Source: a bacterium
Lineage (GTDB): Bacteria > Patescibacteriota > Minisyncoccia > UBA6257 > GWB1-50-10
Direction of reading: 5' to 3'
Length of the DNA stretch: 48,456 nt
Assembly: GCA_030647415.1 (NCBI GenBank)
Contig: JAUSKB010000023.1
Span: forward strand, 1 to 48,456
The notes under the pieces are model-generated. The model ran no database searches, was not told the origin of the DNA, and saw only the letters and a list, made by a program, of their open reading frames with translations. The translations under genes and the position numbers were made by a program. This document shows positions 21,768 to 44,332 of the stretch, one piece after another. How positions within the stretch are numbered: position 1 is the first letter of the stretch; each line of letters starts with the position of its first letter.

Positions 21768-23576
21768 TTATCGGCCGAAACCGCCCCCACCGACACCACG
21801 GGTTCCGCCGCCACCCAAGAGGCTCGCGGCACTCGGCTGCGTCGTCGCCGCGCTTGTGGTCGTCGGTGCGATGGTCCGGATGACCACCACGTCCCCAACC
21901 TGAAGTCCAGAGACAATCTCGACCGCGGTGTCGCTCGAAAGTCCGATTTTAACCGTTTGCTGATTCGGTGGAACGGAAAGTGCCACACCCTGATTCGAGG
22001 TACCGCTAACAGGCATTGTCCCAGACACGACCATCACGGAATTTTGGACTCCCAGTGATTTCACGGCGGCGGCAGGAACCATCACGACATCGCTCGCTGC
22101 TTTTGCGACGATGGCGGCACTGACGCTCATACCCGACTTCACGCGATTATCCTGCGTCGCGAACCGTATCTGGACGGCATACGTCACCACACCCTGTGAA
22201 ACCGTTCCCAATGAGTCCACGCTTGATACCTCGCCGGCGACCGCGAGGTCCGGGACGGCATCAAAAGTCACGGTCGCCTTCTGGCCGACCGAAATGGCGG
22301 AAACGTCAACCTCGTTCAACGTGATCGTGGCGAGCTGCTCCCTCGTGATGAGCGTCGCGACCGCCGTGCCCGGCGAGGCGGCATCCCCCTTCTTCGCGTT
22401 CACCTTGGCGATGACACCATCGAACGGTGCCCGAACGGTGTAGTCAGTAAGTGCCATTTGAGCGTCTCGGAGCGCGTCCTCGCGCTGCTGAACTATGAGT
22501 TTTGAGGAGCGGACATCGAGCGGATCTGCGCCTGCCATGAGCTTATCGAGTGATGCGGACTTTTCCGAAATCGAACGGCCGACGCTGATAATCGAGCTCT
22601 TTGCGGACTTGATTGAGTCCTGGGCGTTCAAAAGCCCGGAGAGATGCCCATTTACGGTCCCCGTCAGGCTGTTCAAGGTCGAGAGATGCGTGTCCGCGGT
22701 TGCCGGCACCCTGAGGTTCTGCTGCGTAACGCTGTCCTTGAACCGCTGCACGAGATTCACCGCGCTCTTCACTGCGTCGGAAACGGCGATGGTCGCATCG
22801 TACGTCTGCGCCACCAGCACTTCGATGGTTGCCGGGTCGGCGGTTCGATTCGTCGCCTTGTATGCCGTGAATGCCGCCTCATACGCGGCGCGTGCAGCTT
22901 GGTATGCGGCATCCGTCTGGTTCCGAATCATCGAGCCCACCGAATCGTCGGCTGCATGGACGGCACTCGCGTAATAATCAATGTTCCACTGCGAGCCACC
23001 AGTCAAGGAGTTCGAGTGAAGTACGTCGTTTAAGCTCGACATGGCATCGGGAAGGTCCAGGTAGGTGTTGGCGGCGGCGGTGAAGGCGTCCGTGTACGCC
23101 TTCACGAGCGAGGCACTCGCGTTCACGCTCGACTCCATCGCGCTCGCGAGGGCGTGCTGGGACTGGAGGAGCGAGAGTGCGTCAGCCGGCTGCATGAGCT
23201 TTTCATAGTTCAGGTGCGCTGTTTCAAGAGCCGTCTCGGCATCCCGAACTGCTTTTTGTGCGTCTTGGGAATCTATCCGCGCGAGTATGGCGCCCGCGCG
23301 AATACTTTGCCCCGCGACAGCCGGGACGGCCGTGAGGTCGCCGGACACCTTCGGCTTGACCTCAACCTGGTTCGAGGCCGACACCTGGCCCGTACCAGTC
23401 ACGGACTGCACCACCGTGCCCGTCTCGGCGACGGCGAGGACATACCGCGTCATGGGAGCGGGAGTGATTAGTGAGGCGATTGCCCGGTATCCGCCGAACG
23501 CAACGACGACAATTATGAGCACAGAAATAGCCCTGTGACTTCGCGCGAACCCCCAGATTTTTTTGAATGGTTTCAT
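21768..23576 (-). CDS. Membrane fusion protein (MacA/HlyD-like adaptor) with long coiled coil
   Basis: SVTGTGQV, EVKPKVSG, VRAPFDGVI, LNEVDV, KSGMSV, VEIVSGLQVGD. Confidence 0.92.
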   Translation of the reverse strand: MKPFKKIWGFARSHRAISVLIIVVVAFGGYRAIASLITPAPMTRYVLAVAETGTVVQSVTGTGQVSASNQVEVKPKVSGDLTAVPAVAGQSIRAGAILARIDSQDAQKAVRDAETALETAHLNYEKLMQPADALSLLQSQHALASAMESSVNASASLVKAYTDAFTAAANTYLDLPDAMSSLNDVLHSNSLTGGSQWNIDYYASAVHAADDSVGSMIRNQTDAAYQAARAAYEAAFTAYKATNRTADPATIEVLVAQTYDATIAVSDAVKSAVNLVQRFKDSVTQQNLRVPATADTHLSTLNSLTGTVNGHLSGLLNAQDSIKSAKSSIISVGRSISEKSASLDKLMAGADPLDVRSSKLIVQQREDALRDAQMALTDYTVRAPFDGVIAKVNAKKGDAASPGTAVATLITREQLATITLNEVDVSAISVGQKATVTFDAVPDLAVAGEVSSVDSLGTVSQGVVTYAVQIRFATQDNRVKSGMSVSAAIVAKAASDVVMVPAAAVKSLGVQNSVMVVSGTMPVSGTSNQGVALSVPPNQQTVKIGLSSDTAVEIVSGLQVGDVVVIRTIAPTTTSAATTQPSAASLLGGGGTRGVGGGGFGR

Positions 23577-26054: not shown

Positions 26055-27056
26055 GTGAAAATCTTGATTCTTTACAACGTGGCTAGGCAGTTGAAAAAGG
26101 GAATTGAAACTGATCTGGTCTGCGAGCAGGAAATTACCATTATCGTCCCGTTGGTCAAAAGGTTTCTCCAAAAAAATGGCTATTCGGTCCAGACGATGGA
26201 AACCGATTTCAACCTGTGGGAGAAGCTGAAGAGGAAAAAGAAGTCAGTTGACATCGTTCTGAATCTCGCCGAGGCGTTCGGAGGCGGCAATACCAACGAA
26301 ACGTTAGTTCCTGAAATGCTGGAGGCACTGGAAATTCCATTTACTGGGGCGTCGGCCCATAATATGCATCTTACTCTCGACAAAGAGAAAACCAAACTCG
26401 TCTTGGCATATTATGGCGTGCCCATACCAAAACATCAGGTATTCCGCCATCCGGAAGAGAATCTGGCCTCTGGTTTGATGTTTCCCCTGATCGTCAAACC
26501 AATCCGTGAAGAGGCGAGTATCGGCATCTATCGCGACAGCGTTGTATCCTCAAGGAAACAACTTCGCGTGAAGGTACAAACGGTCTTGAAAAACTACCGC
26601 CAACCAGCTCTGGTAGAAGAATTCATCAAGGGAAGGGAAATTTCGGTTGGTATGATTGGGAATGCTTTCGACTTCATCATTTTTCCTCCATTGGAATTCA
26701 TCTTTTCGGAAGCACAATCTCCGCTTGAACAGATTCGTTCTTACGAATACAAGTGGGGAGGCAAGAGGGAGCAAATGACCCGGGCATCCTTGCCAAGAAA
26801 AACAGTAAGGAAACTGGAGGAATACACCAGGATCGCCTACAAAGTCACTGAGTGCAGGGATTATGCGAGAATGGATTATCGCCTGGATGATGCAGGGAAT
26901 ATTTACCTCTTGGAGGTAAACTACAACCCGGGCATCGGGCCGAATACTCATGGCCTGAATAACACGCTTACTATGATGGCGAGCTTCGTGGGTATTAGTT
27001 TTGAGGATTTGGTCGAGAAGATCATTTCAATCGCTCACAAGAGATATCAGTCCTGA
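26055..27056 (+). CDS. D-Ala-D-Ala ligase-like ATP-grasp enzyme
   Basis: LEIPFTGA, LDKEKTK, PLIVKP, LVEEFIKGREISV, ARMDYR, LEVNYNPG. Confidence 0.85.
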   Translation: MKILILYNVARQLKKGIETDLVCEQEITIIVPLVKRFLQKNGYSVQTMETDFNLWEKLKRKKKSVDIVLNLAEAFGGGNTNETLVPEMLEALEIPFTGASAHNMHLTLDKEKTKLVLAYYGVPIPKHQVFRHPEENLASGLMFPLIVKPIREEASIGIYRDSVVSSRKQLRVKVQTVLKNYRQPALVEEFIKGREISVGMIGNAFDFIIFPPLEFIFSEAQSPLEQIRSYEYKWGGKREQMTRASLPRKTVRKLEEYTRIAYKVTECRDYARMDYRLDDAGNIYLLEVNYNPGIGPNTHGLNNTLTMMASFVGISFEDLVEKIISIAHKRYQS

Positions 27057-27081
27057 AAAACTACCAAGAAAGGAGGGATGT

Positions 27082-28425
27082 ATGATGATCAAGGCAATTC
27101 TGATTGCTAACACCGCAGAAGCCTTCAAAGAGATTTTGGGCAAAGATAGCCACACCAGACGGGGCAAAGAGAGAATCAATCATGAACTCACGCTTTCTCA
27201 GAGGGCGTTCTTCTGGGAAAGCGACAACAAGATTGTCGTCACACCCTACCCGATTCCTTCAGTACTCTTGGAGGCAAATAAAAGGGCGTTGGGATTTGGT
27301 AATGTGGTCAATCTGGCTCCCACAAGTGGAAGTGTTAACCTCTGCTCATCGGTCTTGGGGGATAGAAAACTTCTGAGATTGATCGCCGGAGAAATAAGGA
27401 AAAGCCGGTGCGTGGCCGTGTCTCCGTATGCCGTGACGCAGGATTTTTTGCAACTGGTTGCTGGACTCAAAGGATTAGGTCTGCAGTTTGTGGTGGAAGA
27501 GAAACCCGCAGACGCCTCTCTGTGGATCGTTTCTTATTTAGACTCCAAAGCAGGATTTCGCACAGAGATGCTGAAATTGCGGTCTGAACACGTAGAAGTG
27601 AAAGTCCCAGAGGGGTTTGTTGCACAAAATGTAGCGGAAGCTCAACGGATGGCGGAGTGGTTCTACAAAAGTGGCCGGTCGTTAGTGTTGAAGGCAAACT
27701 TCGGAGAGTCCGGGTGGGGAATAAAAATTATTCGAGAAGAAGAATACACCTCGCTCCCTGCTTTCCGAAAAGCATTTGCCACGATACTGAAGAATGATGT
27801 CATTTGGCAAAACACCAGCATTGTGGTTGAGGAGTTTGTAGATCCCGACACTGAAGTTGCCGGAGGATCTCCTTCAACTGAAATGTTAGTTACCGAACAG
27901 GGAGCTTTATTCCTCTATCACTGCGGCCAAGTGGTCAACGATGCCGGCGCATTTTTCGGAGTAGAGATTGGAAGGGGCGCACTTTCCAATTCTCTTTCAA
28001 GAAAACTGCTTGTTATCGGAAACATCATCGGTAAGCGATACTGGGAACTGGGCTATCGTGGATATTTCGACATCGATTTCATCATTTCAAAAACCGGTGA
28101 AATTTTTGTTGCAGAGACCAATACAAGGAGAACCGGCGGCACTCACGTCTATGACGCTGCAAGGCATCTCTTCGGTGGAGAATATGAAAAAGAAGCATAT
28201 CTGCTGTCTCATGATTCATTTCTCTACCACAGGAAAAGAATGTTGCCTGAGGAGCTTCTAGAGAAACTCAAGGTGATACTTTATCCTATTAAAGGAGAGA
28301 AGAAGGGTGTGATTATTACTCTAATCAGTGAATGGAGTCCGGTATTAGGGTATATCATCATTGCCTCAAACCGTTCCGAGGGCCAGAAAATGCAGCGACG
28401 GTTGCTCAGTATTTTCGACAGGTGA
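27082..28425 (+). CDS. ATP-grasp enzyme (peptide-ligase-like)
   Basis: LDSKAGFR, VLKANFGESGWG, IVVEEF, GYRGYFDIDF, ETNTRRTGG; SD AGGAGG before ATG 27082. Confidence 0.75.
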   Translation: MMIKAILIANTAEAFKEILGKDSHTRRGKERINHELTLSQRAFFWESDNKIVVTPYPIPSVLLEANKRALGFGNVVNLAPTSGSVNLCSSVLGDRKLLRLIAGEIRKSRCVAVSPYAVTQDFLQLVAGLKGLGLQFVVEEKPADASLWIVSYLDSKAGFRTEMLKLRSEHVEVKVPEGFVAQNVAEAQRMAEWFYKSGRSLVLKANFGESGWGIKIIREEEYTSLPAFRKAFATILKNDVIWQNTSIVVEEFVDPDTEVAGGSPSTEMLVTEQGALFLYHCGQVVNDAGAFFGVEIGRGALSNSLSRKLLVIGNIIGKRYWELGYRGYFDIDFIISKTGEIFVAETNTRRTGGTHVYDAARHLFGGEYEKEAYLLSHDSFLYHRKRMLPEELLEKLKVILYPIKGEKKGVIITLISEWSPVLGYIIIASNRSEGQKMQRRLLSIFDR

Positions 28426-28482
28426 TTGAATTGATTCTAGTTACAAAACGGGTTACACTTCGCGGTGTAGCCCGTTTTTTAT

Positions 28483-28989
28483 ATGAAAACAGATTTATTA
28501 CCAGTAAAACCATTTCAGGAAACTCTCCACCAGAATATGTGCGGGCCGGCAAGCCTGAAAATGGTTTTCCATTACTACGGAATTGAAAAGTCAGAACAAG
28601 AAATAGCCGAAATGTGTAATGTAGATGAAGACTTGGGAACCAACGACACAACGATTCAAAGGGTGGCTGAAGAATTGGGATTCAAGGTAAAAATAAAAAA
28701 TAATAGCACGTTTGAAGACATTCGGGCCTGGTTAGATGAAAAAGTGCCGGTGATTGTGAATTGGTTTACCAGAGGTCGATCAGATTATGATGATTCAGAG
28801 GTTGCGGATGGCCATTATTCCGTGGTTGTCGGATTAGATGAAGAATTTATTTATTTACAGGATCCAGAAATAGGAAAGTTGAGAAAGATAGAGAAAGAAG
28901 ATTTTATGAAAGTGTGGTTTGATTTTACGGGGAAATATATAAACCCAGATGAGTTGATTATTAGACAGCTTATTGCTATTTCCAAATGA
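28483..28989 (+). CDS. Stand-alone peptidase C39-like cysteine protease
   Basis: Q...CGPASLKMV, GHYSVVVG, LQDP; no signal peptide or transporter domain. Confidence 0.85.
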   Translation: MKTDLLPVKPFQETLHQNMCGPASLKMVFHYYGIEKSEQEIAEMCNVDEDLGTNDTTIQRVAEELGFKVKIKNNSTFEDIRAWLDEKVPVIVNWFTRGRSDYDDSEVADGHYSVVVGLDEEFIYLQDPEIGKLRKIEKEDFMKVWFDFTGKYINPDELIIRQLIAISK

Positions 28990-29170: not shown

Positions 29171-29192
29171 GAGGGCGGCATGTGCCGCCCTC
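29171..29192 (-). terminator. Terminator after kinase gene
   Basis: GAGGGCGGC-ATGT-GCCGCCCTC with minus-strand TTCTTTTT tail. Confidence 0.7.
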
Positions 29193-29206: not shown

Positions 29207-30943
29207 CTACCTACTGCTATTCATGCGGAGCGACCACACCTCGCCTCGCTGAATATAGGTGACCAGATCCCCCCAGTTCGAGAGGATCATATCGGTCGCG
29301 ATTTGTCTGTCCTCGACTTTCGTAACGCTGCCGCTCGTCGGAGCGAATACGGCTAACGTACCGTCCTCGAGTATCGTCGCGCAAACCCCTTTCGGGAGTA
29401 TGGCGAGATTCAATTCCGGCCCATCAGTTACACCGCTCCACACCTTATATGACGAATAATCGTGATTGAAGGTGAGCTCTATCTTCTGGTAGGTTCCGCT
29501 CTTATCGATGTAGATGAGCGAAACAAAACGGTTTCCTGCCTTGCCGGCGATCACCTGCACACCGTCTAACTCGCGAACTCGCGTTTGCGTTACTGCGGCA
29601 TCGCCGAACGGTGCAATGACAAACTTCGCACCCATCGCATCAATGACACCGCATCCATCAAACCACTTTGTTGAATTCACAAGGATACCCCACGTTTGCC
29701 CAGCGGAAGCTATCACTCGGTCGCCAAGCTGCGTACACTTGATTTCCATGAGACCCTGGTCCGTCACCCCAAACATTCGATTTTCATATCCGACGAGCTG
29801 ACGAACCTTCACTGAAAACGGGAGGATCTCGCTACGTAAACCTCCATCTCGAATAAACTCAAGACGCACTGACCCGCGCTCAACCCATCCGGCGAGCCAC
29901 CCCTTTCTGACGCGTATGACTTCGCAATCACTCGAGGCTACTGTCATACTATGCTGTCTCGTCGCTAGATCTACGAGTTTATTAGATGCGAGGAGTGCTA
30001 ACCCACAAGGAAAAATCCGTGTTGCTTCGTCTCCCGGAAATCCGAAAAGCTTCTCATATACAAGCATTCCCGATGCTGCCGTAGTAACGACACGAAGCAC
30101 CTGGATCGCCCGTGGAGTCGCAAGAGCCTTGTCGAATGGCGACGGTGGTTCCGTACGCTCACCTTTCTGGAACGTCGCTTCGTACCAACTAAGCAACGAA
30201 GTGGGAATGCACGAGAAATCCCGCACCGCCTGATTCAACCTGACGCCAGGCGTGAACACTGAAGCATTCGCTCGCATCCGATTCTCAAGGTCTCCCCTCG
30301 CGTATCCGTCTAACGTACCCTTGTATGGATGGATGCCGGTGTACACCTGGAACGTGACGACCCCCCAAGCAAACCAATCGGTTCGCTCGTCGAATTTTTT
30401 GGCATGCCAATCGCGCACTGACGGCATGACCACCGTCGGTGGCCACCTGCCGATCGACCACGAGTCTACGTCGACTATGCGGGGATCGGGATCACCACCA
30501 GTGAACTGCGCGAACCAGTTGAGCTCGTTCGGATCGACCAGAATCGCCTTGTGCCCATGAGCGAAGACGAACACTTCGCGCATGCGATCGACGAGCGTCG
30601 AGGCGTGCTTCGAGGTGAATTTCTCACGTCGATGGAATTCCGTGGTGAACACGCGCGCGAGCGGGTGCCCATCGACATATGGCATGTAGTACCCTACCGG
30701 ACCTTTGGCCGAATCAACCGCAAGCCCTCGGGGTGCCACAATGCATCGGTGCTGAAGGACCGTGAGCGCCTTGATCTTGTCGATCATGCCGCTCTTCGCC
30801 ATCTTTCCGGGATCCGTGTAGATCTTTACGACCATATCCGAAACCCTATAGATGGAACCCTCCCCGCCGGTCGCGACGTGATCGCTTGGACGGAGCGTCA
30901 CCGGCCCCTTGCCCTCAAGCGTGACCTGTATGGCACCGCTCAT
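29207..30943 (-). CDS. Ser/Thr kinase-like protein (TerY-P type) with beta-rich C-terminal region
   Basis: GGEGSIY, VVKIY, VDPNELN catalytic loop, IVDVDSW, TDWFAWGV...GIHPYKG; SD GAGGAGG and ATGA overlap with PP2C. Confidence 0.85.
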   Translation of the reverse strand: MSGAIQVTLEGKGPVTLRPSDHVATGGEGSIYRVSDMVVKIYTDPGKMAKSGMIDKIKALTVLQHRCIVAPRGLAVDSAKGPVGYYMPYVDGHPLARVFTTEFHRREKFTSKHASTLVDRMREVFVFAHGHKAILVDPNELNWFAQFTGGDPDPRIVDVDSWSIGRWPPTVVMPSVRDWHAKKFDERTDWFAWGVVTFQVYTGIHPYKGTLDGYARGDLENRMRANASVFTPGVRLNQAVRDFSCIPTSLLSWYEATFQKGERTEPPSPFDKALATPRAIQVLRVVTTAASGMLVYEKLFGFPGDEATRIFPCGLALLASNKLVDLATRQHSMTVASSDCEVIRVRKGWLAGWVERGSVRLEFIRDGGLRSEILPFSVKVRQLVGYENRMFGVTDQGLMEIKCTQLGDRVIASAGQTWGILVNSTKWFDGCGVIDAMGAKFVIAPFGDAAVTQTRVRELDGVQVIAGKAGNRFVSLIYIDKSGTYQKIELTFNHDYSSYKVWSGVTDGPELNLAILPKGVCATILEDGTLAVFAPTSGSVTKVEDRQIATDMILSNWGDLVTYIQRGEVWSLRMNSSR

Positions 30944-31839
30944 GGCGCCTCCTCTCTGCCACCCTCGTGGTCGATATGGATCGCCGCAAGCGCGATGTCG
31001 TCGACGGGACCGACACCAAAGCGCTTTGAGTCCTTGATGCCCCAATTCACCCGTCGCTTCACGAATTCCCCGGCGGTCGTCTTGAACGCGAGGAACTCAA
31101 CCACGGCATCTTGCCAACCCATGCCGGCAATCTGCGTGATGCCATCGGTGAGCACCGCGATGAAACGCAATCGCAGCAACTCCTCGGCGGAAATCGGGAT
31201 GGTGATGCCAGAGATCCCGTCACGGAGCGCATACCGAACCATCACAGACTCAGCCTGGGCACCTTCGGGCGCCGATGGGCGAAGAATCGATTCCGATCCG
31301 TATCGTGGCGCGTCAAGGTCCCCGCCATGCCGTCGGACAAAACTCTCAAGATCGACGCCATCATACTCATACCATGGGTAGAATGGCGTGTTGTCATCCC
31401 AGTCGAATCTCGTCATTCGCAACGAACCGTCGAGATACTTCATCGCGACGACGCCATCCCCTCTCACATGAACCACGCCACCGTCATTCGCGACATACGC
31501 ATACGCGCACGTCGCGTACATGTCTCGGGATTTGACGCCAAGGATGTCGAGCGACGGACGAAGTTCCGAGAAGGTCGCTGCCTGTCGCGCGCTGATGGCT
31601 TCCATGGCTCCCTGCGTCGACCCTGGACACGACTTCGCGTGCGCCCGAATCGCCTCAAGGGTCAGGAACGAGACGATGCGCGCACCTACGTCGGTGTATC
31701 CGCCTGTCGAACATCCGTCGGACACGATGGCGCACGCCGCACTGGAACCTGCGCTTGAGAGCGCATAGTCCTGGCATATCTTCCCACCGGTGTAATGCGA
31801 ATGGCCGATCTGAAAGTGATGATCTGCTGAAAGAATCAT
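30940..31839 (-). CDS. PP2C-like protein phosphatase
   Basis: CQDY, VSDGCS, GDG, LTDG, DDIA metal-binding motifs; SD AAGGAG. Confidence 0.88.
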   Translation of the reverse strand: MILSADHHFQIGHSHYTGGKICQDYALSSAGSSAACAIVSDGCSTGGYTDVGARIVSFLTLEAIRAHAKSCPGSTQGAMEAISARQAATFSELRPSLDILGVKSRDMYATCAYAYVANDGGVVHVRGDGVVAMKYLDGSLRMTRFDWDDNTPFYPWYEYDGVDLESFVRRHGGDLDAPRYGSESILRPSAPEGAQAESVMVRYALRDGISGITIPISAEELLRLRFIAVLTDGITQIAGMGWQDAVVEFLAFKTTAGEFVKRRVNWGIKDSKRFGVGPVDDIALAAIHIDHEGGREEAP

Positions 31840-31914
31840 GTTGCTACTCCTTTCCTGTGGATATACGGAAAGGGCGGTGTTGCCACCGCCCTTCTTTTTA
31901 TTTCGAGTGGCCCC

Positions 31915-32673
31915 CTATATGGTGGCCGCGATCGCCTGGCTCGGCCCACCGGTCCCGATGGCCTGTGACTGGCTCGACACAGACTGAGAGACGAACTCGG
32001 CGAGCTTTGCGAGCTTACCCTTCGTCGCGTCCCCGATGTCTATGTATTTGAGATCAGCCTCGGTCGCGAATCGCTGAAGCTCCTTGGTGTGTAGCTTCGC
32101 ATTGACCCCGATGAGGATCGGAACCAAGGACTCGATATCCTCCCCCTTCTGCCCACGATCGATCTCCGCACGGATCATCCGAGGTGTCGAGGACGACGCA
32201 TTGTCGTCACCGTCAGTAAGGACGAACACGATACCGTTCGCGAGGAAGTTCTGTGACATAAGCTGCTTTGCGTAGGCGTTCGTCGCGCCAACGCCGGAAT
32301 ACACGGCGTCGAAAAGCGGCGTCATGCCACCCGTTTTGAGAGGCTGATACGCACCTGGATCGATCTCCCCAAGCGGCTTGAAACCATGAATCTCCTCGAT
32401 GCCGCCACTCAATGACGAGGAGAACAGGATGAGGCGCAACAGCAGATTGTTCGACCGTGGCGACTTCTTGCAGCTCTCCACAGCCGTCTGAAGACACTTG
32501 AGGAGGTCATCCGCAAAGTCGTCTACAGAGCCGGTTACGTCCACCGCGATGGTCACGAGCGTGTACTCGGTTGCGCCGAGATGCTCGATGCGCGTCGCGG
32601 AAAAATGGAACCCCTTCCCGCTCCCGATCTGCATGTTCTCCATGCTCGGATCGATGTTGCTCAAACGTGGCAT
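31915..32673 (-). CDS. vWA-domain protein, TerY-like
   Basis: MIDAS VDVTGS, GGMTPL, LTDGDDN, IGV, C-terminal FVSQSVSSQS; SD AAGGAG. Confidence 0.85.
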   Translation of the reverse strand: MPRLSNIDPSMENMQIGSGKGFHFSATRIEHLGATEYTLVTIAVDVTGSVDDFADDLLKCLQTAVESCKKSPRSNNLLLRLILFSSSLSGGIEEIHGFKPLGEIDPGAYQPLKTGGMTPLFDAVYSGVGATNAYAKQLMSQNFLANGIVFVLTDGDDNASSSTPRMIRAEIDRGQKGEDIESLVPILIGVNAKLHTKELQRFATEADLKYIDIGDATKGKLAKLAEFVSQSVSSQSQAIGTGGPSQAIAATI

Positions 32674-32689
32674 AGGCTTACATCTCCTT

Positions 32690-33517
32690 TCAGTTCAGAA
32701 AATCGGTGGATGTGGCGACGGTCATTCCCCGTCGTTGCATATTGACCAGGAACTCCTGAGCAATCTGAGGGAAATCGATTCCCGGGAGTGCGCCGACCGG
32801 AGACATGCAATCCTTCAAGAGGTGGAACTTCTTGATGTGCTCATCGCCGATGTTGTCGGCGATCTGTTCTACGGTTTTCAAGACGCAATGCGAGGACGCC
32901 TCGCCGGCGACCGCCACGATGTCCGCCCCTGCGAGCATGTTGAGGAAATCGGTGTTGAGCGCTGTGCTCGCGTCGGTGGGGTCAGGAACCTCTGCCATGA
33001 GTGCCCCGTAGTGCTCGGTCCATGGGTTTGACCCCTTGGTCACATAGTCGACCATGGCGAATTCCCTTCCGGACCATTCTTGCAGCGCCTCGTTCAAGTC
33101 AGGGTGGACGTTATGCCCCCACGTGCCGATCAGGCAATGCGTCGGCCAAATACAGATTTTGTAGTGGCCGGGGCGGGCCTCGAGCGCATTCGCGTACGCA
33201 ACCATGCGGGCGCGATGCCCTGGATCCCTCGTCGTCCAGATGCCGGCCCTGATATCCGCCTCTGAGATGATGGTGAACGGTTTTGGTACCTCGCCATTCT
33301 GATCCATCCACATTGCCGCGTGACCTACATCGATCAAACGATGGCTGTCGAGCGTAACGTGAATGTCGTCCAACTTCCTACCGATACGCCGCACAAGCTG
33401 CGCTGTTTGCTTCATATCAGCATCGGCACCCGGCACCGGCAACATGGCACGGGGAATGTCGCAGAAATCGTTCTGTGGGTCGATGATGACAAGATGAATC
33501 TTCAGCCTCTTTCCCAT
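32690..33517 (-). CDS. pncA: Nicotinamidase (isochorismatase-like cysteine hydrolase)
   Basis: IDPQNDFC, TLDSH, WPTHC, KG, AGEASSHCV; SD AAGGAG before ATG 33517. Confidence 0.85.
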   Translation of the reverse strand: MGKRLKIHLVIIDPQNDFCDIPRAMLPVPGADADMKQTAQLVRRIGRKLDDIHVTLDSHRLIDVGHAAMWMDQNGEVPKPFTIISEADIRAGIWTTRDPGHRARMVAYANALEARPGHYKICIWPTHCLIGTWGHNVHPDLNEALQEWSGREFAMVDYVTKGSNPWTEHYGALMAEVPDPTDASTALNTDFLNMLAGADIVAVAGEASSHCVLKTVEQIADNIGDEHIKKFHLLKDCMSPVGALPGIDFPQIAQEFLVNMQRRGMTVATSTDFLN

Positions 33518-33584
33518 ACTGCTTCTCCTTTTTATGGGTTTATGAAATAGGTTCCTGTTGACCAGTGAACCAGTTGCTGGCGCG

Positions 33585-33613
33585 ATTTTATTACATATAT
33601 GGAATTGTGTCAA
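33585..33613 (-). promoter_or_regulatory. Sigma-70 promoter of pncA-vWA-PP2C-kinase operon
   Basis: Minus strand TTGACA (33613-33608)-17-TAAAAT (33590-33585). Confidence 0.7.
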
Positions 33614-33632
33614 TGTTTTAGTCGCTCAAAAA

Positions 33633-33664
33633 AGTTGACTTTATGTCAACTAATGATTTAGAAT
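33633..33664 (+). promoter_or_regulatory. Sigma-70 promoter of NUDIX-pncB-nadE operon with overlapping palindrome
   Basis: TTGACT (33635)-18-TAGAAT (33659); AGTTGAC-TTTAT-GTCAACT inverted repeat. Confidence 0.6.
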
Positions 33665-33721
33665 ATTCCCAGCAATTTCCACACAATTCACTTATATTCC
33701 ACATACGAAAGGGTAAAACCA

Positions 33722-34270
33722 ATGAGGCGATTCAAACCGTTATACCACGGGCGTTTTCTTGATGTCGTCCAGCACCATCAAACCGGTTTCGAGGTGGTGA
33801 GAACCACCAACTCCGTCGCGGTACTCGTCTATATCATCGGCGAGGGACTACTGCTCGTGAAGCAGCGACGCCCGGCAATGATCCGCAAGGGGAACCGATA
33901 CGGATGGATCACCGAGACAGTCGCGGGGCGAAGGGACCGAAAGCTCACCCTGAAACACCTCGCATCGAGTGAGATTAGGGAGGAGACGGGGTGCGCCATC
34001 AAGCCGAAGGACATTAAAATCCTAAACGGCGGAAAAGCGCTTGCCCTCTCCCCAGGAGCGCTCACCGAGCGGATATGGCTTGCGTACGCGGAGATTCCTC
34101 GAAAGCGGGTCAGCAACCGCTGGAACAAGATCTTCGGAGTCGATACGGATGAACGGACAGAACGTGTGTTGGTACCGCTCGCCTCGCTCGAGAAGATGAA
34201 ATTCACCGACATGAAAACCTTCGCGGTGGTGCAATGGTTCCTGCGCAGCCAGACATGGAAAGGGGCCTGA
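33722..34270 (+). CDS. NUDIX hydrolase (ADP-ribose/NDP-sugar pyrophosphatase-like)
   Basis: LLVKQRRP, ETVAG...EIREETG degenerate Nudix box, SPGALTE, DMKT. Confidence 0.82.
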   Translation: MRRFKPLYHGRFLDVVQHHQTGFEVVRTTNSVAVLVYIIGEGLLLVKQRRPAMIRKGNRYGWITETVAGRRDRKLTLKHLASSEIREETGCAIKPKDIKILNGGKALALSPGALTERIWLAYAEIPRKRVSNRWNKIFGVDTDERTERVLVPLASLEKMKFTDMKTFAVVQWFLRSQTWKGA

Positions 34271-34272
34271 CA

Positions 34273-35538
34273 TTGAAAGCAGACAAACCGATTATCAAAT
34301 CGTTCCTGTGGCAGGACTTCTACAAGTTCACCATGGGATACTTCGTGTATCATCTGTACAAGGACGTGACGGTGCGATACGCGTTCAAGAACCGGACGAC
34401 GGGTATCCACATCGGGAACCTCATCGACATCGGGGCCCTCAAGGAGGAGTTGGACCACGTCCGGACTCTGCATATCACGAGGTCGGAACACCACTACCTT
34501 CGCGGGACGTTCGAATACGGGAACAAGATGTTCTCGGACGACTACCTCGACTTTCTCCGCGATATCACAATGCCGGACTACCACTTCGAGGTGGTCGACG
34601 GTCAGATCGCTCTTGAATTCGAGGGTCCCTGGAGCACGGCGATCTACTGGGAGATATTCGCCCTGGTAATCGTACAAACGCTCCTGGGCCGTGCCGTCCT
34701 CAAACGCCATTCGCGATTCGAATTGGATGCGGTGCGCGCAGAGGGCGTACGGAGACTCGCCGATAAGATAGCCATACTGAAGACGCGGCCGGACATCATA
34801 TTCTCTGATTTCGGGACCAGGCGGGCATTCAGCCCGGAATGGCAGGAATACGTCGTCGGAGCGCTCTCTGAAGAGCTTCCCGGCGGATACCAATTCCTCG
34901 GAACGTCGAACGTGTGGCTCGCGATGCAGTATGGGCTCCTGCCTATGGGCACCGACGCGCATGAACGCACGATGGTTATCGCAGCGCTTATGGATAATGA
35001 CCCGGAAGGCAATGGGGTTCGGGCAGCCATCAGTACCGCAACCCAGCAATGGTGGGACCTGTATAACTATGGACTTTCCATCGCGCTTCCAGACACGTTT
35101 GGGACCGACGCCTTCCTTCGCTCGTTCACGCCGGCTCAGGCATACACATGGAAGGGGTTCCGGCAGGATTCTGGCGATCCGCTCGATATCATTGGAAACA
35201 AGTATATTCCCTTCTATCGCCAGTGCGGCATGAACGACGGGGAGATACGTGGGAAGTTAGCTATTCCGAGCGACGGACTCGAATTGCCGCTTATGACCAA
35301 AATCACGGATACGTTCAAAGACGTAGTTCGGATATCGAGCGGCTGGGGCACGAACCTCACCAACGACCTGGGGCTCAAAACCCTCTCGATCGTCATCAAG
35401 GTAGTCAGTGCGAACGGCCGCGGGACGGTGAAACTCTCCGATAATCCCACGAAGGCGATGGGAAGGTCAGAGGATATCGCCCGGTACATGAAGATCTTCG
35501 TGTACGGAGCGCACGATTCGGTGGAATGCAAATACTAG
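34273..35538 (+). CDS. pncB: Nicotinate phosphoribosyltransferase
   Basis: DFYKFTM, SDFGTRR, GTSN, GTDAHE, LPDTFGT, RQDSGDP, SDGL, GWGTNLTND, KLSDNPTK; probable TTG start. Confidence 0.95.
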   Translation: MKADKPIIKSFLWQDFYKFTMGYFVYHLYKDVTVRYAFKNRTTGIHIGNLIDIGALKEELDHVRTLHITRSEHHYLRGTFEYGNKMFSDDYLDFLRDITMPDYHFEVVDGQIALEFEGPWSTAIYWEIFALVIVQTLLGRAVLKRHSRFELDAVRAEGVRRLADKIAILKTRPDIIFSDFGTRRAFSPEWQEYVVGALSEELPGGYQFLGTSNVWLAMQYGLLPMGTDAHERTMVIAALMDNDPEGNGVRAAISTATQQWWDLYNYGLSIALPDTFGTDAFLRSFTPAQAYTWKGFRQDSGDPLDIIGNKYIPFYRQCGMNDGEIRGKLAIPSDGLELPLMTKITDTFKDVVRISSGWGTNLTNDLGLKTLSIVIKVVSANGRGTVKLSDNPTKAMGRSEDIARYMKIFVYGAHDSVECKY

Positions 35539-35543
35539 CAATC

Positions 35544-35573
35544 GGTAGAGACGGGCATATGCCCGTCTCTACC
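35544..35573. repeat. GTAG-type REP-like perfect palindrome
   Basis: GGTAGAGACGGGCAT|ATGCCCGTCTCTACC. Confidence 0.75.
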
Positions 35574-35682
35574 ACCTGTTTTCTCACGAGAGCGCCGAAC
35601 GCCGGCATTCTCGTGAGGGAGCACGAGCGTTCTCCCTCAGTCGTTTCACAATCACATACGAAAACCTAAGAAAGGATATCTC

Positions 35683-37641
35683 ATGCGGTATAAGAATTTT
35701 GGATTCGTGCGCGTCGCTGCGGCGGTGCCAAAGGTAACAATTGGCGACCCGCTGGCGAATGTTGAGCATATGCTACAGCTCGCCACTAGAGCATATACGC
35801 AGGGTGTGCAGGTACTCGCCTTCCCTGAGCTGGGCCTAACCGGATACTCGTGCGGGGACATGTTCTCGCAGGAGCTACTACTCGACACTACGCTGGACGC
35901 GCTCTTCCACTTCACTACGACGACGGCGCGATACAACACGCTGTATGTCGTCGGATTGCCGATGCGCATCGACGGCCAGCTCTATAACGTCGCTGCCTTC
36001 GTCGCAAACGGAAGCATCCTCGGGATCGTGCCGAAAGGACACATCCCGAACTACAAGGAGTTCCAGGAAGACCGCTGGTTCCGTCCAGGGACGGAGCTGC
36101 GCGTTGATATCGCGGCGCTTAATTCGCCGGATGGTATGCCATACCAGGTTCCGGCCGGCATGAACATCATCATCGACGTCGAGAACCTTCCCGGCCTCAT
36201 GGTCGGTGCGGACATCTGCGAAGACATCTGGATGCCTATGTCGCCTGGCGAACGCCACGCGCTCCACGGGGCAACCTTGCTGGTGAATATCTCAGCTTCG
36301 AACGATACGGTGGGCAAGTCAGACTTCCGCCGCCTTCTCGTGAACTCGAGGTCAGGGAAATGTGTCGCCGGGCAGATATATGTGTCCTGCGGGCCGTGGG
36401 AGTCATCCGCGGAGACGGTGTTTGGAGGCGACGCGATGATCAGCGCAAATGGGACGGTCGTTGCGGGATCGAAGCGATTCAGCTTCGAGCCTCAGCTCAT
36501 CGTCGCCGACGTTGACGTTGCGGCACTCACACGCGAGCGGACCCAGACGGGCACCTTCGGAGCCGCTTCGGCACTAGAGCGCGCGGAGTACGTTGTAGTC
36601 CCCTGCTCTATTGGAGAGCTTGATCTCTCAAACAGCTTCCGCATACCAGTGGATCCGTTTCCTTTCGTTCCGTCCGATCCTGCGACGCGCGATGCTCGAT
36701 GCGAAGAGGTGTTCAGCATCCAGATGACCGGCCTCATCCGCCGATTACTCCACGTTTTCAAGGGGAGGACGCCTACCGTAACCATTGGGATCTCCGGTGG
36801 GCTTGATTCCACACTGGCACTGCTTGTTCTGGTGAAGGCGTACCTGCACATAGGGTGGGACCTCAAGGGTATTATCGCGGTCACCATGCCGGGTCCGGGT
36901 ACGAAGTCACGAACGCTGAAAAACGTGTTCCGACTCTGTACGGCGCTCGGCATCACGGTGCGGAAGATACCAATCACTAGGGCGGTGACGCGCCACCTCA
37001 GAGACATCGGACACGAACCATGCTGGGCATGCCTCACCTGCGAGAACGCCCAGGCACGTGAGCGGACCAAGATCCTCATGGACCTTGGCTTCATGATCAA
37101 TACCGGCGACCTATCAGAGGGCATACTCGGGTGGTGTACCTACGGCGGAGATCAGGATGGCATGTATGCCGTAAACGCAGGAGTCCCCAAGACGCTCGTC
37201 CGGCACATTGTTGGCTGGGAGGCAAACCACCAACAAGCTAACATTCGGAAGATTCTCAAGGACATCTTGGAAACACCTATCTCACCCGAGCTGACCAAAG
37301 CGGTGCAACAAACAGAGTCAAGGATCGGTCCATACGCGCTACACGACTTCTTCATCTGGCACATGTTTCGTCATGGATCATGGCCTGAGAAGATTCTCTT
37401 CCTTGCTGAGGTTGCCTTTGAGGGGACATACAGCCGCGAGATAATCCTGAAGTGGATGCTCGTGTACTATGAGCGATTCTTCGGAAACCAGTTCAAGCGG
37501 GACGCGTCGCCGAATGGCCCAAAGATCGGGGCGGTAAGCATCTCGCCGCGAGGCGACCTCAGGATGCCCTCAGATATGGAGGGTAGGCTCTGGGTAGACG
37601 AGGTGATGCGTCTGGGGGCTAATCCACCAGACAACGAGTGA
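35683..37641 (+). CDS. nadE: Glutamine-dependent NAD+ synthetase
   Basis: Nitrilase domain FPELGLTGY, PNYKEF, ICEDIW; synthetase GISGGLDST, ENAQARER, TGDLSE, NQFKR, SPRGD. Confidence 0.96.
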   Translation: MRYKNFGFVRVAAAVPKVTIGDPLANVEHMLQLATRAYTQGVQVLAFPELGLTGYSCGDMFSQELLLDTTLDALFHFTTTTARYNTLYVVGLPMRIDGQLYNVAAFVANGSILGIVPKGHIPNYKEFQEDRWFRPGTELRVDIAALNSPDGMPYQVPAGMNIIIDVENLPGLMVGADICEDIWMPMSPGERHALHGATLLVNISASNDTVGKSDFRRLLVNSRSGKCVAGQIYVSCGPWESSAETVFGGDAMISANGTVVAGSKRFSFEPQLIVADVDVAALTRERTQTGTFGAASALERAEYVVVPCSIGELDLSNSFRIPVDPFPFVPSDPATRDARCEEVFSIQMTGLIRRLLHVFKGRTPTVTIGISGGLDSTLALLVLVKAYLHIGWDLKGIIAVTMPGPGTKSRTLKNVFRLCTALGITVRKIPITRAVTRHLRDIGHEPCWACLTCENAQARERTKILMDLGFMINTGDLSEGILGWCTYGGDQDGMYAVNAGVPKTLVRHIVGWEANHQQANIRKILKDILETPISPELTKAVQQTESRIGPYALHDFFIWHMFRHGSWPEKILFLAEVAFEGTYSREIILKWMLVYYERFFGNQFKRDASPNGPKIGAVSISPRGDLRMPSDMEGRLWVDEVMRLGANPPDNE

Positions 37642-37658: not shown

Positions 37659-37689
37659 AACCCCGGCATATGCCGGGGTTGCTTTTTTG
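37659..37689 (+). terminator. Terminator after nadE
   Basis: AACCCCGGC-ATAT-GCCGGGGTT followed by GCTTTTTTG. Confidence 0.75.
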
Positions 37690-37739
37690 TGCATAAAAAT
37701 AGAATCTCCCGGCCGAGGCCGGGAGATAGGTTATTTTTC

Positions 37740-40968: not shown

Positions 40969-41086
40969 TGCCCGCGTACCCTACTTTCCCGGCCCCCGAG
41001 GGAGCAAGTATCATCGGGCCAAGACACTTTCACTGCTCTGTTCGGAATGGGAAGAGGTGGGTCATGTCTTGGTAAAACACGAGCAA
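40969..41086 (-). rRNA. rrf: 5S rRNA
   Basis: Minus strand CCACCTCTTCCCATTCCGAACAGAGCAGTGAAA...CCGATGATACT...GGGAAAGTAGG; flanked by CTGAAATTTTCGT/ACGAAAATTTCAG stem. Confidence 0.93.
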
Positions 41087-41298
41087 ACGAAAATTTCAGT
41101 GCGGCCGCACAAGAACAACGGGTCAGTTTACTGAAGTAGAGAGGTTCGGTCGCATATCGCTTCTCCGTCCGCGTAATTCGCGAACGGAACAAGCAGTGGG
41201 GGTATTAGTACTCCTAGGCTAAACACCTTACGGTGCGTACACCGAGAGCCTATCAACCTGGTAGTCTTCCAGGGCCCCATAGTGTCTCATCTTGGGAG

Positions 41299-41332
<34 letters not shown>

Positions 41333-41473
41333 CGTCCGAACATAGCTACCTGGCGATTCACCTGGTGGCAAAGCCAGTAGACCAGAGGTTCGTTCAACCC
41401 GGTCCTCTCGTACTAGGGTCGACTTCCCTCAAACACTCACGCCGACAGTAGATAGAGACCAACCTGTCTCACG

Positions 41474-41957
41474 CATGTTCTCGCGCATTGCTGCGCGCAT
41501 AGGACTATATCTTCATCCAAGTTTTGGATGATCGACGTGTAGTCTCTACGGGGTTAATGTTATTTTATAATTATTCTTCTCCGATTTGGGCTTTTATACT
41601 ATCTCCAATAGTTGATTCTATATCAACTCTTATGTCATTCAATTCCCAAAAAATCTTACGCAATACAACAAGTATTGCTATTAGAAGTCCAATAATTATC
41701 AATAAACTTAGTAGAATTATTATTTCCATAATTTCATTATAACACAACTTCCCTCGGTATTGTCCGTCATGATTTTGGTCAAACCATGTGGATTCCACCG
41801 AAATAGTCGATTTTTGCACCATAACATTACTGCTATGGGCCGCCGTGATGTGATCTGTCTTCTATCTCTCTTCGTTGACGAAAAAAACTAAAACATACTC
41901 GACGTCTGAGTCCCAGATTCAAACCGTTCATGCGCCAATCGCTCGATTAGCACATCA
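41474..41957 (-). ncRNA. Group I intron at 23S position 2593 (E. coli numbering)
   Basis: Splits AAACCGT|CGTGAGACA; ends in G; IGS TCACGGCGG gives P1 with U-G and P10; core elements TTTCGGTGGAATCC, AATACCGAGGGAAG, GTAGAGACTACACG, GAAGATATAGTCC. Confidence 0.92.
41571..41729 (-). CDS. Intron-encoded 52-aa single-TM protein (not a homing endonuclease)
   Basis: MEIIILLSLLIIIGLLIAILVVLRKIFWELNDIRVDIES...; AT-rich, located between Q and R core elements. Confidence 0.5.
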   Translation of the reverse strand: MEIIILLSLLIIIGLLIAILVVLRKIFWELNDIRVDIESTIGDSIKAQIGEE

Positions 41958-41983
41958 ACGGTTTGAACCCAGCTCACGTACCA

Positions 41984-42014
<31 letters not shown>

Positions 42015-43398
42015 GCTTCTTCACCCCCGGGATGTGGTGAGCCGACATCGAGGTGCCGAGCGCGGTCGTCGCTAGGGACGCTCGGACCGCACCAGCCTGT
42101 TATCCCCGGAGTAACTTTTATCCGTTATCTCCAACCTTCCTATGAAGCACTCGCGCATTATAAATAACGCGCGAGCATTGTTGTCGGGTCGCTAACCTCC
42201 GCTTTCGCGCCTGCGCGACTTGTAGGTCTTGCAGTTAAGCCGGCTTTTGCGTTTGCACGTCCAGCGCGATTTCCATCCGCGCCAAGCCGACCTTGATAGG
42301 CCCCTCCGTTACCTTTTAGGAGGGTTCCGCCCCAGAAAAACTGCCCGCCAGGCACTGTCCCTGTGCGTTTTTGCCGCACTGGTTAGACAGTAGCAATTCG
42401 AAGATGGGTGTTTCATTGACGGATCCACTCCGACCGAGGTCGGAGCTTCAAATCCTCCCCACTACGCTACGCAGCGAACCACTACTTTCAATACCAAGCT
42501 ACAGTAAAGCTTCCGGGGTCTTTTCGTCTTACTGCCGGTAACCCGCGTCTTCACGGGTATCGCACTTTCATCGAGCGTGCCGCTGAGACAGTTCTCCGAT
42601 CATTACGCCTTTCATGCGCTCCGGAACTTACCCGGAAAGGAATTGCGCTACTTTAACACGGTTATAGTTACCGCGGACATTGACGAGGGCTTCGGGCAGT
42701 GAGCCATAACCATCCTTGCGGATGACCACGACCCCCACCGTTAACCTTCTCGCATCGGTCAGGCGTCACCCCCTATACATCCTCTTGCGAGTTCGCAGGG
42801 AGCTGTGTTTTTGGTAAACAGTTGCCAGAGAAACTTTAGCTGCGGCCCCGCTTGCGCGGGGCAAGGCTTATCCCGAAGTTACGCCTAGCTTTTTTGCCGA
42901 GTTCCTTAGCGGCAGGTCACTCGTTCCCCTGAGGCTACTCGCCTCATCCACCTGTGGCGGTTTACGGTACGGGGCCAATAGCGCCCTTAGAGGGTTTTCT
43001 CGAGAGGCTCTTCTGCTGCATTGCCCACGGAAAACCGTGGACTGCCGCCGCCGCCGCATGCCGCCAGTGAAGGCCGACTCCCGGATTTGCCAGGGAGCCC
43101 ATGCTTACGGTAGCGATGTCAAACCAGTGAGACACGCAGCTCTATTTCCTCTGTCACCCCATCGGTATCTCGCTATTGGCGGGCTGGAATATTAACCAGC
43201 TGTCCATCAGCTGCGGCTTTCGCCATTGCCTAAGGGCCGCCTCACCCTCCGACGATGTTCGTTGCGGAGGAAACCTTGGATTTGCGGGGAGCGCGGTTTT
43301 CACGCGCTTTGTGATTACTCGTCCCAACATTCTCTCTTCCCTGCGCTCCACCGGCCCTCACGGATCCGGCTTCAGTGCACAGGAAATGCTCTCCTACC

Positions 43399-43519
43399 GT
43401 CGTTACTCGCCCGAATGCAACACACGAATGAAATCGAATATAACCGAATAAAAACGCATTCGTTCAGTATTCGATTAGATTCGTTCATATTCGTGGGCTC
43501 CATTCGAGCGAGCAGCGAC
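43399..43519 (-). other. Intervening sequence in 23S helix 45 region
   Basis: Long hairpin closed by GTCGTTACTCGC/GCGAGCAGCGAC with repeated CGAAT/ATTCG units, at the position of E. coli ~1170. Confidence 0.75.
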
Positions 43520-44269: not shown

Positions 44270-44332
44270 TTAAGGCTCCGGTTCCTTGTAAGTGGATGGT
44301 TTCAGGTACTATTTCATCGCCCTCCCGGGCTG

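Follow-up and report, generated by a model that had tools for sequence, protein, structure and literature searches.

A seven-gene locus in the genome of a Patescibacteriota bacterium (GTDB lineage Bacteria; Patescibacteriota; Minisyncoccia; UBA6257; GWB1-50-10) joins genes for a nicotinamidase-like protein (PncA-like), a vWA-fold protein, a PP2C-type phosphatase and a Ser/Thr kinase to genes for enzymes of NAD salvage. The locus lies on contig JAUSKB010000023.1 of assembly GCA_030647415.1, and the window is the whole stretch that was analysed, positions 1 to 48,456 of the forward strand. The genome measures 963,714 bp in 38 contigs and is 99.65% complete as judged by marker genes. The gene series pncA-vWA-PP2C-kinase is a conserved cassette rather than a local accident, and its linkage to NAD salvage is real and conserved. 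We read the locus, at a probability of roughly 0.6, as a mobile NAD-salvage module of the Preiss-Handler type whose first enzyme is gated by a phospho-switch. What is new here is the wiring of a signalling triad to NAD salvage; the parts are of known kinds. No description of a nicotinamidase combined with a vWA protein, a PP2C and a kinase was found in the open full-text literature, a scope outside which lie most subscription papers, supplements and Anantharaman et al. 2012, and within the same scope the cassette has not been described in phages or Patescibacteria either.

Screening one genome from each species yielded 121 confirmed kinase relatives. In the 80 best of these loci, genes were located by tblastn with the seven proteins of the locus as queries. 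PP2C is detected in 76 of these loci, and vWA and pncA in 74 each. Wherever all four genes are present (74 loci), they follow the order pncA-vWA-PP2C-kinase with every neighbouring pair adjacent, which extends to all 74 the first-pass annotation's remark that the nicotinamidase leads the signalling genes. Six loci have less than the full set, with no match to pncA or vWA; five of them are cut less than 1 kb upstream of the kinase, and L021 about 500 bp upstream. A word-indexed search finds at least 666 kinase relatives, counted as clusters at 90% identity. The 120 relatives listed are 555-594 aa long and 52-64% identical, are called 'hypothetical protein' wherever they are named, and come, where named, mostly from Patescibacteria (candidate phyla radiation, CPR).

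The hairpin in the vWA-PP2C spacer is conserved as well. Among 69 other loci, this spacer reaches a minimum free energy of -15 kcal/mol or below in 68 and folds more than 5 kcal/mol below its shuffles in 62; the same two measures give 29/59 and 30/59 for the pncA-vWA spacer. Many of the vWA-PP2C hairpins resemble intrinsic terminators. In the window this spacer is 75 nt long and contains a 10-bp GC hairpin whose stem has no clean T-run behind it, the pncA-vWA spacer is 16 nt, and the kinase start overlaps the PP2C stop as ATGA. The tightest gene pair of the cassette is pncA-vWA, which is adjacent in 35 of the 38 viral loci that carry both genes, even where the other cassette genes are separated.

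Genes of NAD metabolism recur around the cassette. Flanks of up to 10 kb on each side were examined, their open reading frames (ORFs) were clustered de novo, and Pfam was then run on the cluster representatives. Within 10 kb, pncB is found in 40 of the 80 loci, nadE in 25 and either gene in 45, in varied placement (upstream or downstream, on either strand). Other recurrent neighbours are NrtR, a regulator of NAD genes that combines Nudix and winged-helix domains (37 loci), NadD-like proteins (13), NAD kinase (12), a TrmB-type regulator (9), ADP-ribosylglycohydrolase (8), phosphoribosyl pyrophosphate synthetase (Prs, 7), a canonical 210-aa isochorismatase (PncA, 7), a 305-aa Nudix protein (5), PnuC (5), NadR-like proteins (5), a short NadE (5) and a deoxyribosyltransferase-Nudix fusion (4). 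The proposed connection between signalling triad and NAD-salvage enzymes is borne out by these 45 of 80 genome loci and by 20 of 41 viral loci. Separation of the two gene sets in other genomes, which the first-pass annotation had named as grounds for abandoning the link, was looked for and is not what was found: six viral loci have pncB or nadE inside the cassette itself.

The same association holds among closer kin. In a set of 61 genomes (the window's and 60 relatives), pncB occurs in only 4, the window's included, in keeping with the earlier premise that CPR genomes usually lack cofactor pathways. The kinase occurs in 2 of the 61, and both of these genomes, the window's and G037, have pncB beside the cassette. 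In G037 it adjoins the cassette directly, in an arrangement unlike that of the window. The window's genome also encodes an NAD kinase (C2:35691-36521).

The PncA-like protein narrowly misses the standard models. Its match to the Isochorismatase family PF00857 (E = 7e-6) scores 26.6 bits with a cut-off of 27, its match to the NCBIfam equivalog PRK11609 scores 27.3 bits with a cut-off of 174, and PF00857 also misses it in a whole-genome search. A profile of its own family, in contrast to the single sequence, matches six PDB structures, all six of them nicotinamidases, the best being yeast Pnc1 (2h0r, 1.2e-10). In an alignment of 104 rows, 32 of them viral, the catalytic triad D13, K161 and C211 is kept in 103, 104 and 104 rows, respectively, and aligns with the corresponding motifs of Mycobacterium tuberculosis PncA and yeast Pnc1. 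In the metal site, the ligands D57, H59 and H127 are retained by 103 or more of the 104 rows; D57, H59, W124, H127 and C128, which include the WPxHC motif, are present in all 104. An Asp/His/His metal site sets nicotinamidases apart from other isochorismatase-like enzymes and holds the pyridine ring. As a member of this enzyme family, the protein would convert nicotinamide to nicotinate. Its 275 aa exceed the 180-235 aa of the solved bacterial and yeast enzymes that it matches, and the family has an insertion and a C-terminal extension that those canonical enzymes lack. It is the sole nicotinamidase candidate in the window's genome. At another locus (L009, 12742-13776), a second PncA-like paralogue lies downstream of the kinase.

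The vWA protein has no match in Pfam, and its sequence profile reaches solved vWA structures in the PDB at E = 0.31 only. Its AlphaFold2 model (mean predicted local distance difference test score, pLDDT, 86) has integrin I and vWA domains as top Foldseek matches (E about 1e-8), with a template modelling (TM) score of up to 0.72 by target and a probability of 1.00 for integrin I domains. Residues D45, S49, T118 and D154 of the metal-ion-dependent adhesion site (MIDAS) are kept in all 106 rows of the family alignment. The most conserved part of the protein is its C-terminal tail (FVSQSVSSQSQALGTGGPSQ; consensus LAKLAxFVSQSVSSQSQALGTGGPSQ), in which S229, S231, S233, S236 and S245 are each kept in at least 101 of 106 rows. 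Phage copies retain this tail although their overall identity is only about 40%. At E ≤ 1e-30 the family has 543 members in a set of 1.84 billion cluster representatives, and almost all of the 543 measure 240-260 aa. A search of PHROGs with the seven proteins assigns the vWA protein to phrog_7371, of unknown function, and otherwise returns generic NAD enzymes. A complex prediction for PncA and the vWA protein (score 0.00, mark 0.32) has no bearing either way.

The remaining two cassette proteins are recognizable as a phosphatase and a kinase. PP2C matches PF13672 (PP2C_2) at E = 1.1e-12 and 48.5 bits, above the cut-off of 24; its DG motifs D41-G42, D128-G129 and D232-G233 are invariant across 96 rows, and D280-D281 persists in 94 of them. 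The kinase stays below the Pfam Pkinase cut-off (E = 0.012; 15.4 bits, cut-off 31.7), and its family profile matches MAP3K9 at E = 7e-4. Of 109 rows, at least 105 retain its Gly-loop, Lys, catalytic Asp/Asn and DFG-like Asp. The AlphaFold2 model (pLDDT 83) has a kinase domain at about residues 1-270, a disordered linker and 29 β-strands between about 288 and 578, and its top Foldseek matches are the kinase-WD40 part of LRRK2. A structure search of the ESM Atlas with the C-terminal part returns as nearest neighbours mostly viral 'hypothetical' clusters (TM 0.86-0.96), followed by seven-bladed propellers (TM 0.64-0.69), so that the modelled C-terminal domain is probably a seven-bladed β-propeller. 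In alignments of 96-109 rows that include viral ones, at least 94% of rows retain the active and binding residues of the four cassette proteins, and by these residues all four look active. The kinase gene of three other genomes is broken into two ORFs where the kinase domain meets the propeller (L006/L075, 5319-7078; L079; L080). In G037 the two ORFs share 4 nt, read in different frames. The break could be natural or reflect a frameshift.

Among the genes of the opposite strand, pncB and nadE are secure. The pncB product matches PF04095 (2e-40) and PF17767 (2e-22) and passes TIGR01514 (272.5 bits, cut-off 269.55); that of nadE matches NF002730 at E = 1.2e-218 (727.6 bits, cut-off 473) as well as PF00795 and PF02540. 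The Nudix call has as its sole basis a match to TIGR00052, the YffH/AdpP subfamily, at E = 1.9e-10 and 40.6 bits (cut-off 79.55); neither Pfam nor the PDB gives a match. The protein is weakly similar to ADP-ribose pyrophosphatases and would probably break down ADP-ribose. It bears no resemblance to the Nudix proteins of other loci, whether NrtR-type or 305 aa long. The first-pass domain calls accordingly divide: those for pncB, nadE and PP2C stand above curated cut-offs, but PncA-like, vWA, kinase and Nudix fall below them. Since the kinase, vWA and PncA-like proteins are sub-threshold as single sequences, their identities are set by family profiles, structure models and conserved residues.

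At the coordinates claimed earlier, each of the seven ORFs is open (Table 1), and together they form two divergent sets on minus and plus strands around a shared spacer, which was put at about 200 bp and measures 204 bp. This spacer contains the best two promoter-like matches of a 10-kb scan, arranged back to back: TTGACA-17-TAAAAT on the minus strand (33613-33585), matching the consensus at 11 of 12 positions, and TTGACT-18-TAGAAT on the plus strand (33635-33664), matching at 10 of 12. The scanned region as a whole contains 9 promoter-like sites compared with 6.7±2.1 in shuffles, which is no excess over chance, and the two spacer sites are consequently consensus matches only; of the back-to-back sigma-70 promoters announced at first, the placement stands. 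A perfect inverted repeat, GTTGAC-N5-GTCAAC (33634-33650), overlaps the -35 element of the plus-strand site and occurs once in the genome. It may be an operator. NrtR was considered as its regulator and rejected, as the repeat presents GT-N13-AC in place of the GT-N7-AC core given for NrtR operators in the part of the source available (PMC2330246), and PF21906 has no match in the window's genome, which thus lacks NrtR. The plus-strand order Nudix-pncB-nadE also holds, but a terminator-like hairpin precedes nadE, so its transcript is possibly separate from that of Nudix-pncB and the three may not form a single set as first described.

Table 1. Positions of genes and putative control elements of the NAD-salvage locus within the window
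Feature	Position	Strand	Basis or remark
PncA-like nicotinamidase, 275 aa, cassette gene 1	32690-33517	minus	likely start ATG at 33517, Shine-Dalgarno present
vWA-fold protein, 252 aa, intact MIDAS, Ser/Gln-rich C-terminal tail	31915-32673	minus	predicted structure and conserved residues
PP2C-type phosphatase, 299 aa	30940-31839	minus	PF13672 above cut-off
Ser/Thr kinase with probable seven-bladed β-propeller	29207-30943	minus	start picked by homologue alignment
Nudix hydrolase, 182 aa	33722-34270	plus	weak TIGR00052 match
pncB, nicotinate phosphoribosyltransferase	34234-35538	plus	Pfam and TIGR01514
nadE, glutamine-dependent NAD+ synthetase, CN-hydrolase and NAD-synthase domains	35683-37641	plus	NF002730, PF00795, PF02540
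Divergent control region, 204 bp	33518-33721	none	back-to-back promoter-like sites and inverted repeat
GC-rich hairpin between vWA and PP2C, possible attenuator or terminator	31870-31893	minus	10-bp stem
Terminator-like hairpin after kinase	29171-29192	minus	9-bp stem, 8 GC pairs, T-rich tail
Terminator-like hairpin after pncB	35544-35573		hairpin scan
Terminator-like hairpins after nadE	37659-37680 and 37704-37727		hairpin scan

The neighbours of the locus in the window are pilus, efflux, ATP-grasp and RecQ genes and an rRNA operon; no phage genes were found around it. The 23S rRNA gene (41185-45055, minus strand) is 3871 nt long compared with a 2925-nt model and thus contains about 950 nt of insertions, of a kind often reported for CPR bacteria; the 5S rRNA gene lies at 40969-41084. 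At 26055-28989 (plus strand), considered together with 16285-23576, a stretch of low GC content (0.47 compared with about 0.58) codes for two ATP-grasp proteins, one of them D-Ala-D-Ala-ligase-like, and for a protein with a C39 peptidase domain; HlyD, MacB/FtsX and ABC genes adjoin it. This may be an export cluster for an ATP-grasp-modified peptide or bacteriocin, possibly acquired horizontally.

The cassette is shared with viruses. Full-length matches to the kinase occur in two deposited huge phages (485 and 595 kb), and further matches in 39 IMG/VR contigs, many of them 100-470 kb long, which gives a viral set of 41 loci. Among these, pncA is present in 39, vWA in 38, PP2C in 28 and pncB in 19. 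Either pncB or nadE lies near the cassette in the 20 viral loci mentioned above, and the six with one of these genes between pncA and the kinase include two near-duplicates; NadD-like, Prs and Nudix genes recur as well. Four of five viral records that were checked have a large-terminase match, three of them above the Pfam cut-off, and one record has terminal repeats and is estimated to be complete. The phage link drawn in the first-pass annotation is borne out, since in these jumbo phages the cassette is accompanied by pncB, nadE, nadD, prs and Nudix genes. In 12 of the 41 viral loci (for example, L100, L104, L106, L107 and L121) there is a Nudix gene akin to the 305-aa cluster, whose Nudix domain lies in the C-terminal half and whose N-terminal half has no assignment; in most of the 12 this gene is directly upstream of pncA.

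A kinase tree (FastTree with Shimodaira-Hasegawa-like support, 96 distinct of 102 rows) divides into a cellular clade and a purely viral clade of 16 rows (support 100). Within the cellular clade, the kinase of the window groups with six other rows that carry CPR labels (support 100), namely Paceibacterota, Zambryskibacteria, Saccharibacteria, Gracilibacteria and Parcubacteria. Taxon labels in the cellular clade are scrambled, as is expected of horizontal transfer. Bradyrhizobium copies are near-identical to IMG/VR proviruses and sit among genes for an exonuclease, a DNA-polymerase-exonuclease subunit, a terminase-like protein and an integrase. On 800-kb plasmids of Variovorax, PP2C and kinase genes adjoin pncB, NADAR and NadE genes; no PncA-like or vWA gene is detectable at this variant locus. 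One such locus (L087, Variovorax sp. SRS16 plasmid 2, 606964-628373) also encodes an AlkB-like dioxygenase and a MazG-like pyrophosphohydrolase, and the 304-aa protein encoded upstream there is unrelated to the vWA family (hhalign probability 0.2%).

In the mechanism that we favour, the PncA-like enzyme would deamidate nicotinamide to nicotinate, and PncB and NadE, encoded across the divergent promoter region, would take nicotinate towards NAD by the Preiss-Handler route. The Nudix enzyme would handle ADP-ribose, the other product of NAD cleavage. The vWA, PP2C and kinase proteins would form a reversible phosphorylation switch that gates the PncA step, the committing one. Because pncA and vWA are the tightest gene pair, the vWA protein is taken as the partner of PncA and could be its Mg2+/MIDAS-dependent adaptor or regulatory subunit. 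The Ser/Gln-rich tail is the likely substrate of both kinase and PP2C, and the β-propeller is likely a sensor or docking domain. The vWA-PP2C hairpin probably keeps PncA and vWA abundant and PP2C and kinase scarce.

A bolder proposal, which we offer as tentative, is that a fourth NAD+ reconstitution pathway, of the Preiss-Handler type and common to jumbo phages and CPR symbionts, has the cassette as its regulated core. At the onset of NAD cleavage, the β-propeller might sense an NADase, an ADP-ribosylated protein or a breakdown product, upon which the kinase would phosphorylate the Ser/Gln tail of the vWA adaptor. The nicotinamidase might thereby be released, or be assembled with PncB, NadD and NadE, such that nicotinamide, together with ADP-ribose by way of Nudix and Prs, would be returned to NAD only on demand. 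PP2C would then reset the switch.

Several observations weigh against the gated Preiss-Handler module that we favour. Phosphorylation of the vWA tail, binding of PncA by the vWA protein and an effect on NAD are things that we infer from conserved residues and gene order. The PncA-like protein lies just under its Pfam cut-off and far under that of the NCBIfam equivalog. The canonical 210-aa isochorismatase-family PncA is also present in 7 of the 80 loci, and the cassette enzyme may for this reason not be a plain housekeeping nicotinamidase. The Variovorax pair of PP2C and kinase, which occurs without PncA and vWA, implies that the switch may act on something other than PncA. No adenylyltransferase for nicotinate mononucleotide (NaMN) or nicotinamide mononucleotide (NMN), such as NadD, was found in the 38-contig assembly of the window's genome, either with PF01467 or with custom hidden Markov models (0 matches each), and a search for the PF01467 family finds an NaMN adenylyltransferase in 22 of 40 relatives. 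The Preiss-Handler pathway as assembled is therefore incomplete in this genome, although with 38 contigs the absence of NadD is not proven. Finally, the related loci are not independent of one another: the viral set contains near-duplicates, and 96 of the 102 kinase rows are distinct.

The cassette resembles four kinds of described systems without coinciding with any of them. The first-pass annotation assigned the triad to TerY-P, and this did not survive: PADLOC-DB 2.0, which presumably includes TerY-P models, has no model for vWA or PP2C at E ≤ 0.1, and the kinase ends in a propeller. The triad was reportedly set out by Anantharaman et al. in 2012, and a stand-alone role in defence is said to come from Gao et al. 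in 2020. The accessible part of a later source describes TerY-P as a vWA protein, a PP2C and a Ser/Thr kinase predicted to form a phosphorylation-dependent switch around the metal-binding vWA, with kinases that end in a zinc ribbon in the classical form or in an OB fold in the defence form (PMC10542128). As far as that part goes, the two share adjacent vWA, PP2C and kinase genes with the same folds in the same order (all 74 complete loci), whereas the cassette kinase ends in a probable seven-bladed β-propeller. The cassette vWA differs further in being matched by no PADLOC or Pfam model and in its family-specific Ser/Gln tail, and the triad in being preceded by a nicotinamidase, embedded in NAD-salvage clusters and present in jumbo phages. 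We therefore reject simple TerY-P membership and conclude that the triad would work like TerY-P but by sequence is not a member of it.

Regulons of NAD genes under NrtR are described in the available part of PMC2330246, where the terms 'protein kinase', 'phosphatase' and 'Willebrand' do not occur in the text. Such Preiss-Handler clusters have in common with the cassette that pncA-like, pncB and nadE genes are grouped, with NrtR near 37 of the 80 related loci. Unlike them, the cassette has a longer, divergent nicotinamidase locked to three signalling proteins, and the window's genome has neither NrtR nor a detectable NadD. The phage NAD reconstitution pathways NARP1-3 are summarized in the part of PMC13464706 at hand: NARP1 recycles ADP-ribose, NARP2 proceeds through NMN, and NARP3 combines PnuC with a NadR-like enzyme. 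The accessible sections of PMC9503650 add the phage NAD enzymes NadV, NadM and NadR. The likeness is that NAD rebuilding is phage-borne, as where jumbo-phage cassettes sit with pncB, nadE, nadD, prs and Nudix genes. Unlike the cassette, none of the three pathways, so far as these texts extend, runs through a nicotinamidase and NaMN or is described with a kinase, phosphatase and vWA switch; 'PncA', 'PncB' and 'NadE' are not in the text of PMC13464706. The signature enzymes of NARP1 (an ADP-ribose-recycling pair), NARP2 (Nampt and Nmnat) and NARP3 (PnuC and the NadR-like enzyme) were not found in the window. Host systems centred on ADP-ribosylglycohydrolase (ARG), which have Nudix or WYL regulators and vWA chaperones, combine a NrtR-like Nudix regulator, ARG and sometimes vWA, with a core of ARG and a phosphatase of other superfamilies (section 3.8 of Iyer et al. 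2022, PMC9503650). They share the Nudix, ARG and vWA themes, and ARG genes lie near the cassette in 8 of the 80 loci, but no nicotinamidase, PP2C or protein kinase is described in that section; the text of PMC9503650 contains no instance of 'nicotinamidase', 'PncA' or 'PP2C'.

The alternative that overlaps most with the gated salvage module differs from it in purpose and trigger. The cassette with pncB, nadE and Nudix could be a counter-defence or NAD-rescue module that rebuilds NAD after attack by NADases (Sir2, TIR and others), in which the attack itself triggers the kinase/propeller switch, as a Preiss-Handler counterpart of NARP1-3. Its presence in two huge phages and 39 IMG/VR contigs, many with pncB, nadE, nadD, prs and Nudix genes, speaks for this, as do the large terminases in four of five checked records (one of them estimated complete), the purely viral kinase clade with its support of 100, the phage-like surroundings of the Bradyrhizobium copies, the recurrence of ADP-ribosylglycohydrolase, NADAR and Nudix genes nearby and the patchy distribution of the kinase (2 of 61 related genomes). 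Moreover, NAD reconstitution by phages is established counter-defence in the parts of PMC13464706 and of PMC9503650 (section 3.6) that are available. Yet the cellular clade, to which the window belongs, usually neighbours housekeeping NAD genes and NrtR, an ADP-ribose-responsive repressor (37 of 80 loci), rather than defence or anti-defence genes, and the window's locus has no phage genes around it. Counter-defence against NADases is plausible, and as an account of this locus we consider it less likely than gated salvage.

If the triad were instead a TerY-P-type anti-phage defence with the PncA-like protein as its effector, the NAD genes would be nearby for unrelated reasons. The content and order of vWA, PP2C and Ser/Thr kinase do match the published triad as far as the accessible part of PMC10542128 describes it, the kinase has weak PADLOC and NCBIfam matches to the defence kinases PD-T4-6 (E = 0.0046) and MADS6 (mad6; E = 3.7e-4), and the distribution is patchy and mobile; but PADLOC has 0 families for vWA, PP2C and PncA at E ≤ 0.1, a propeller takes the place of the zinc ribbon or OB fold, the cassette is common in jumbo phages with NAD biosynthesis genes interleaved, and a nicotinamidase has no obvious toxic or abortive activity, which together make defence of this type improbable. 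Alternatively, the PncA-like protein might here be no nicotinamidase but an amidase of proteins or peptides, which would deamidate conserved glutamines in the vWA tail and so make an acidic MIDAS ligand. Such a role would suit the exceptional conservation of the tail, the tightness of the PncA-vWA gene pair, the insertion and C-terminal extension of the enzyme and the additional canonical PncA in some loci. It fits poorly with the invariant nicotinamidase metal site, with nicotinate being the substrate of PncB, the commonest neighbour, and with the cassette enzyme being the only nicotinamidase candidate in the window's genome, and we regard it as a long shot. Mere chance adjacency of triad and NAD genes might be argued from the 35 of 80 loci, including those of Bradyrhizobium, that have neither pncB nor nadE in the flanks examined. 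However, the cassette order holds in 74 of 74 loci, NAD genes neighbour the cassette in most loci across several phyla and phages in many arrangements, and a 20-kb flank is only about 2% of a 1-Mb genome. The fixed order and the recurrent NAD-gene neighbours contradict chance, and we reject it.

Depleting NAD is among the main means by which bacteria halt phages, and since 2024 three NAD-rebuilding pathways of phages have been described. Within the described scope of NARP1-3, the cassette would add a nicotinate route, which none of them uses, and a kinase/phosphatase switch, which is not described for them. If the fourth-pathway proposal is true, it would be the first post-translationally gated NAD-rescue system, and a TerY-P-type triad would be wired to a metabolic enzyme rather than a nuclease. 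More generally, the cassette would give the vWA-PP2C-kinase triad a concrete metabolic output; in the part of the TerY-P literature available, the mechanism is so far predicted only. The cassette is widespread yet called 'hypothetical protein' wherever it is named, and it can be put to bench tests through the copies in prophage-like DNA of cultured Bradyrhizobium and through the related Variovorax pair. In CPR bacteria, which mostly lack cofactor synthesis, the cassette would mark lineages able to make NAD from scavenged nicotinamide.

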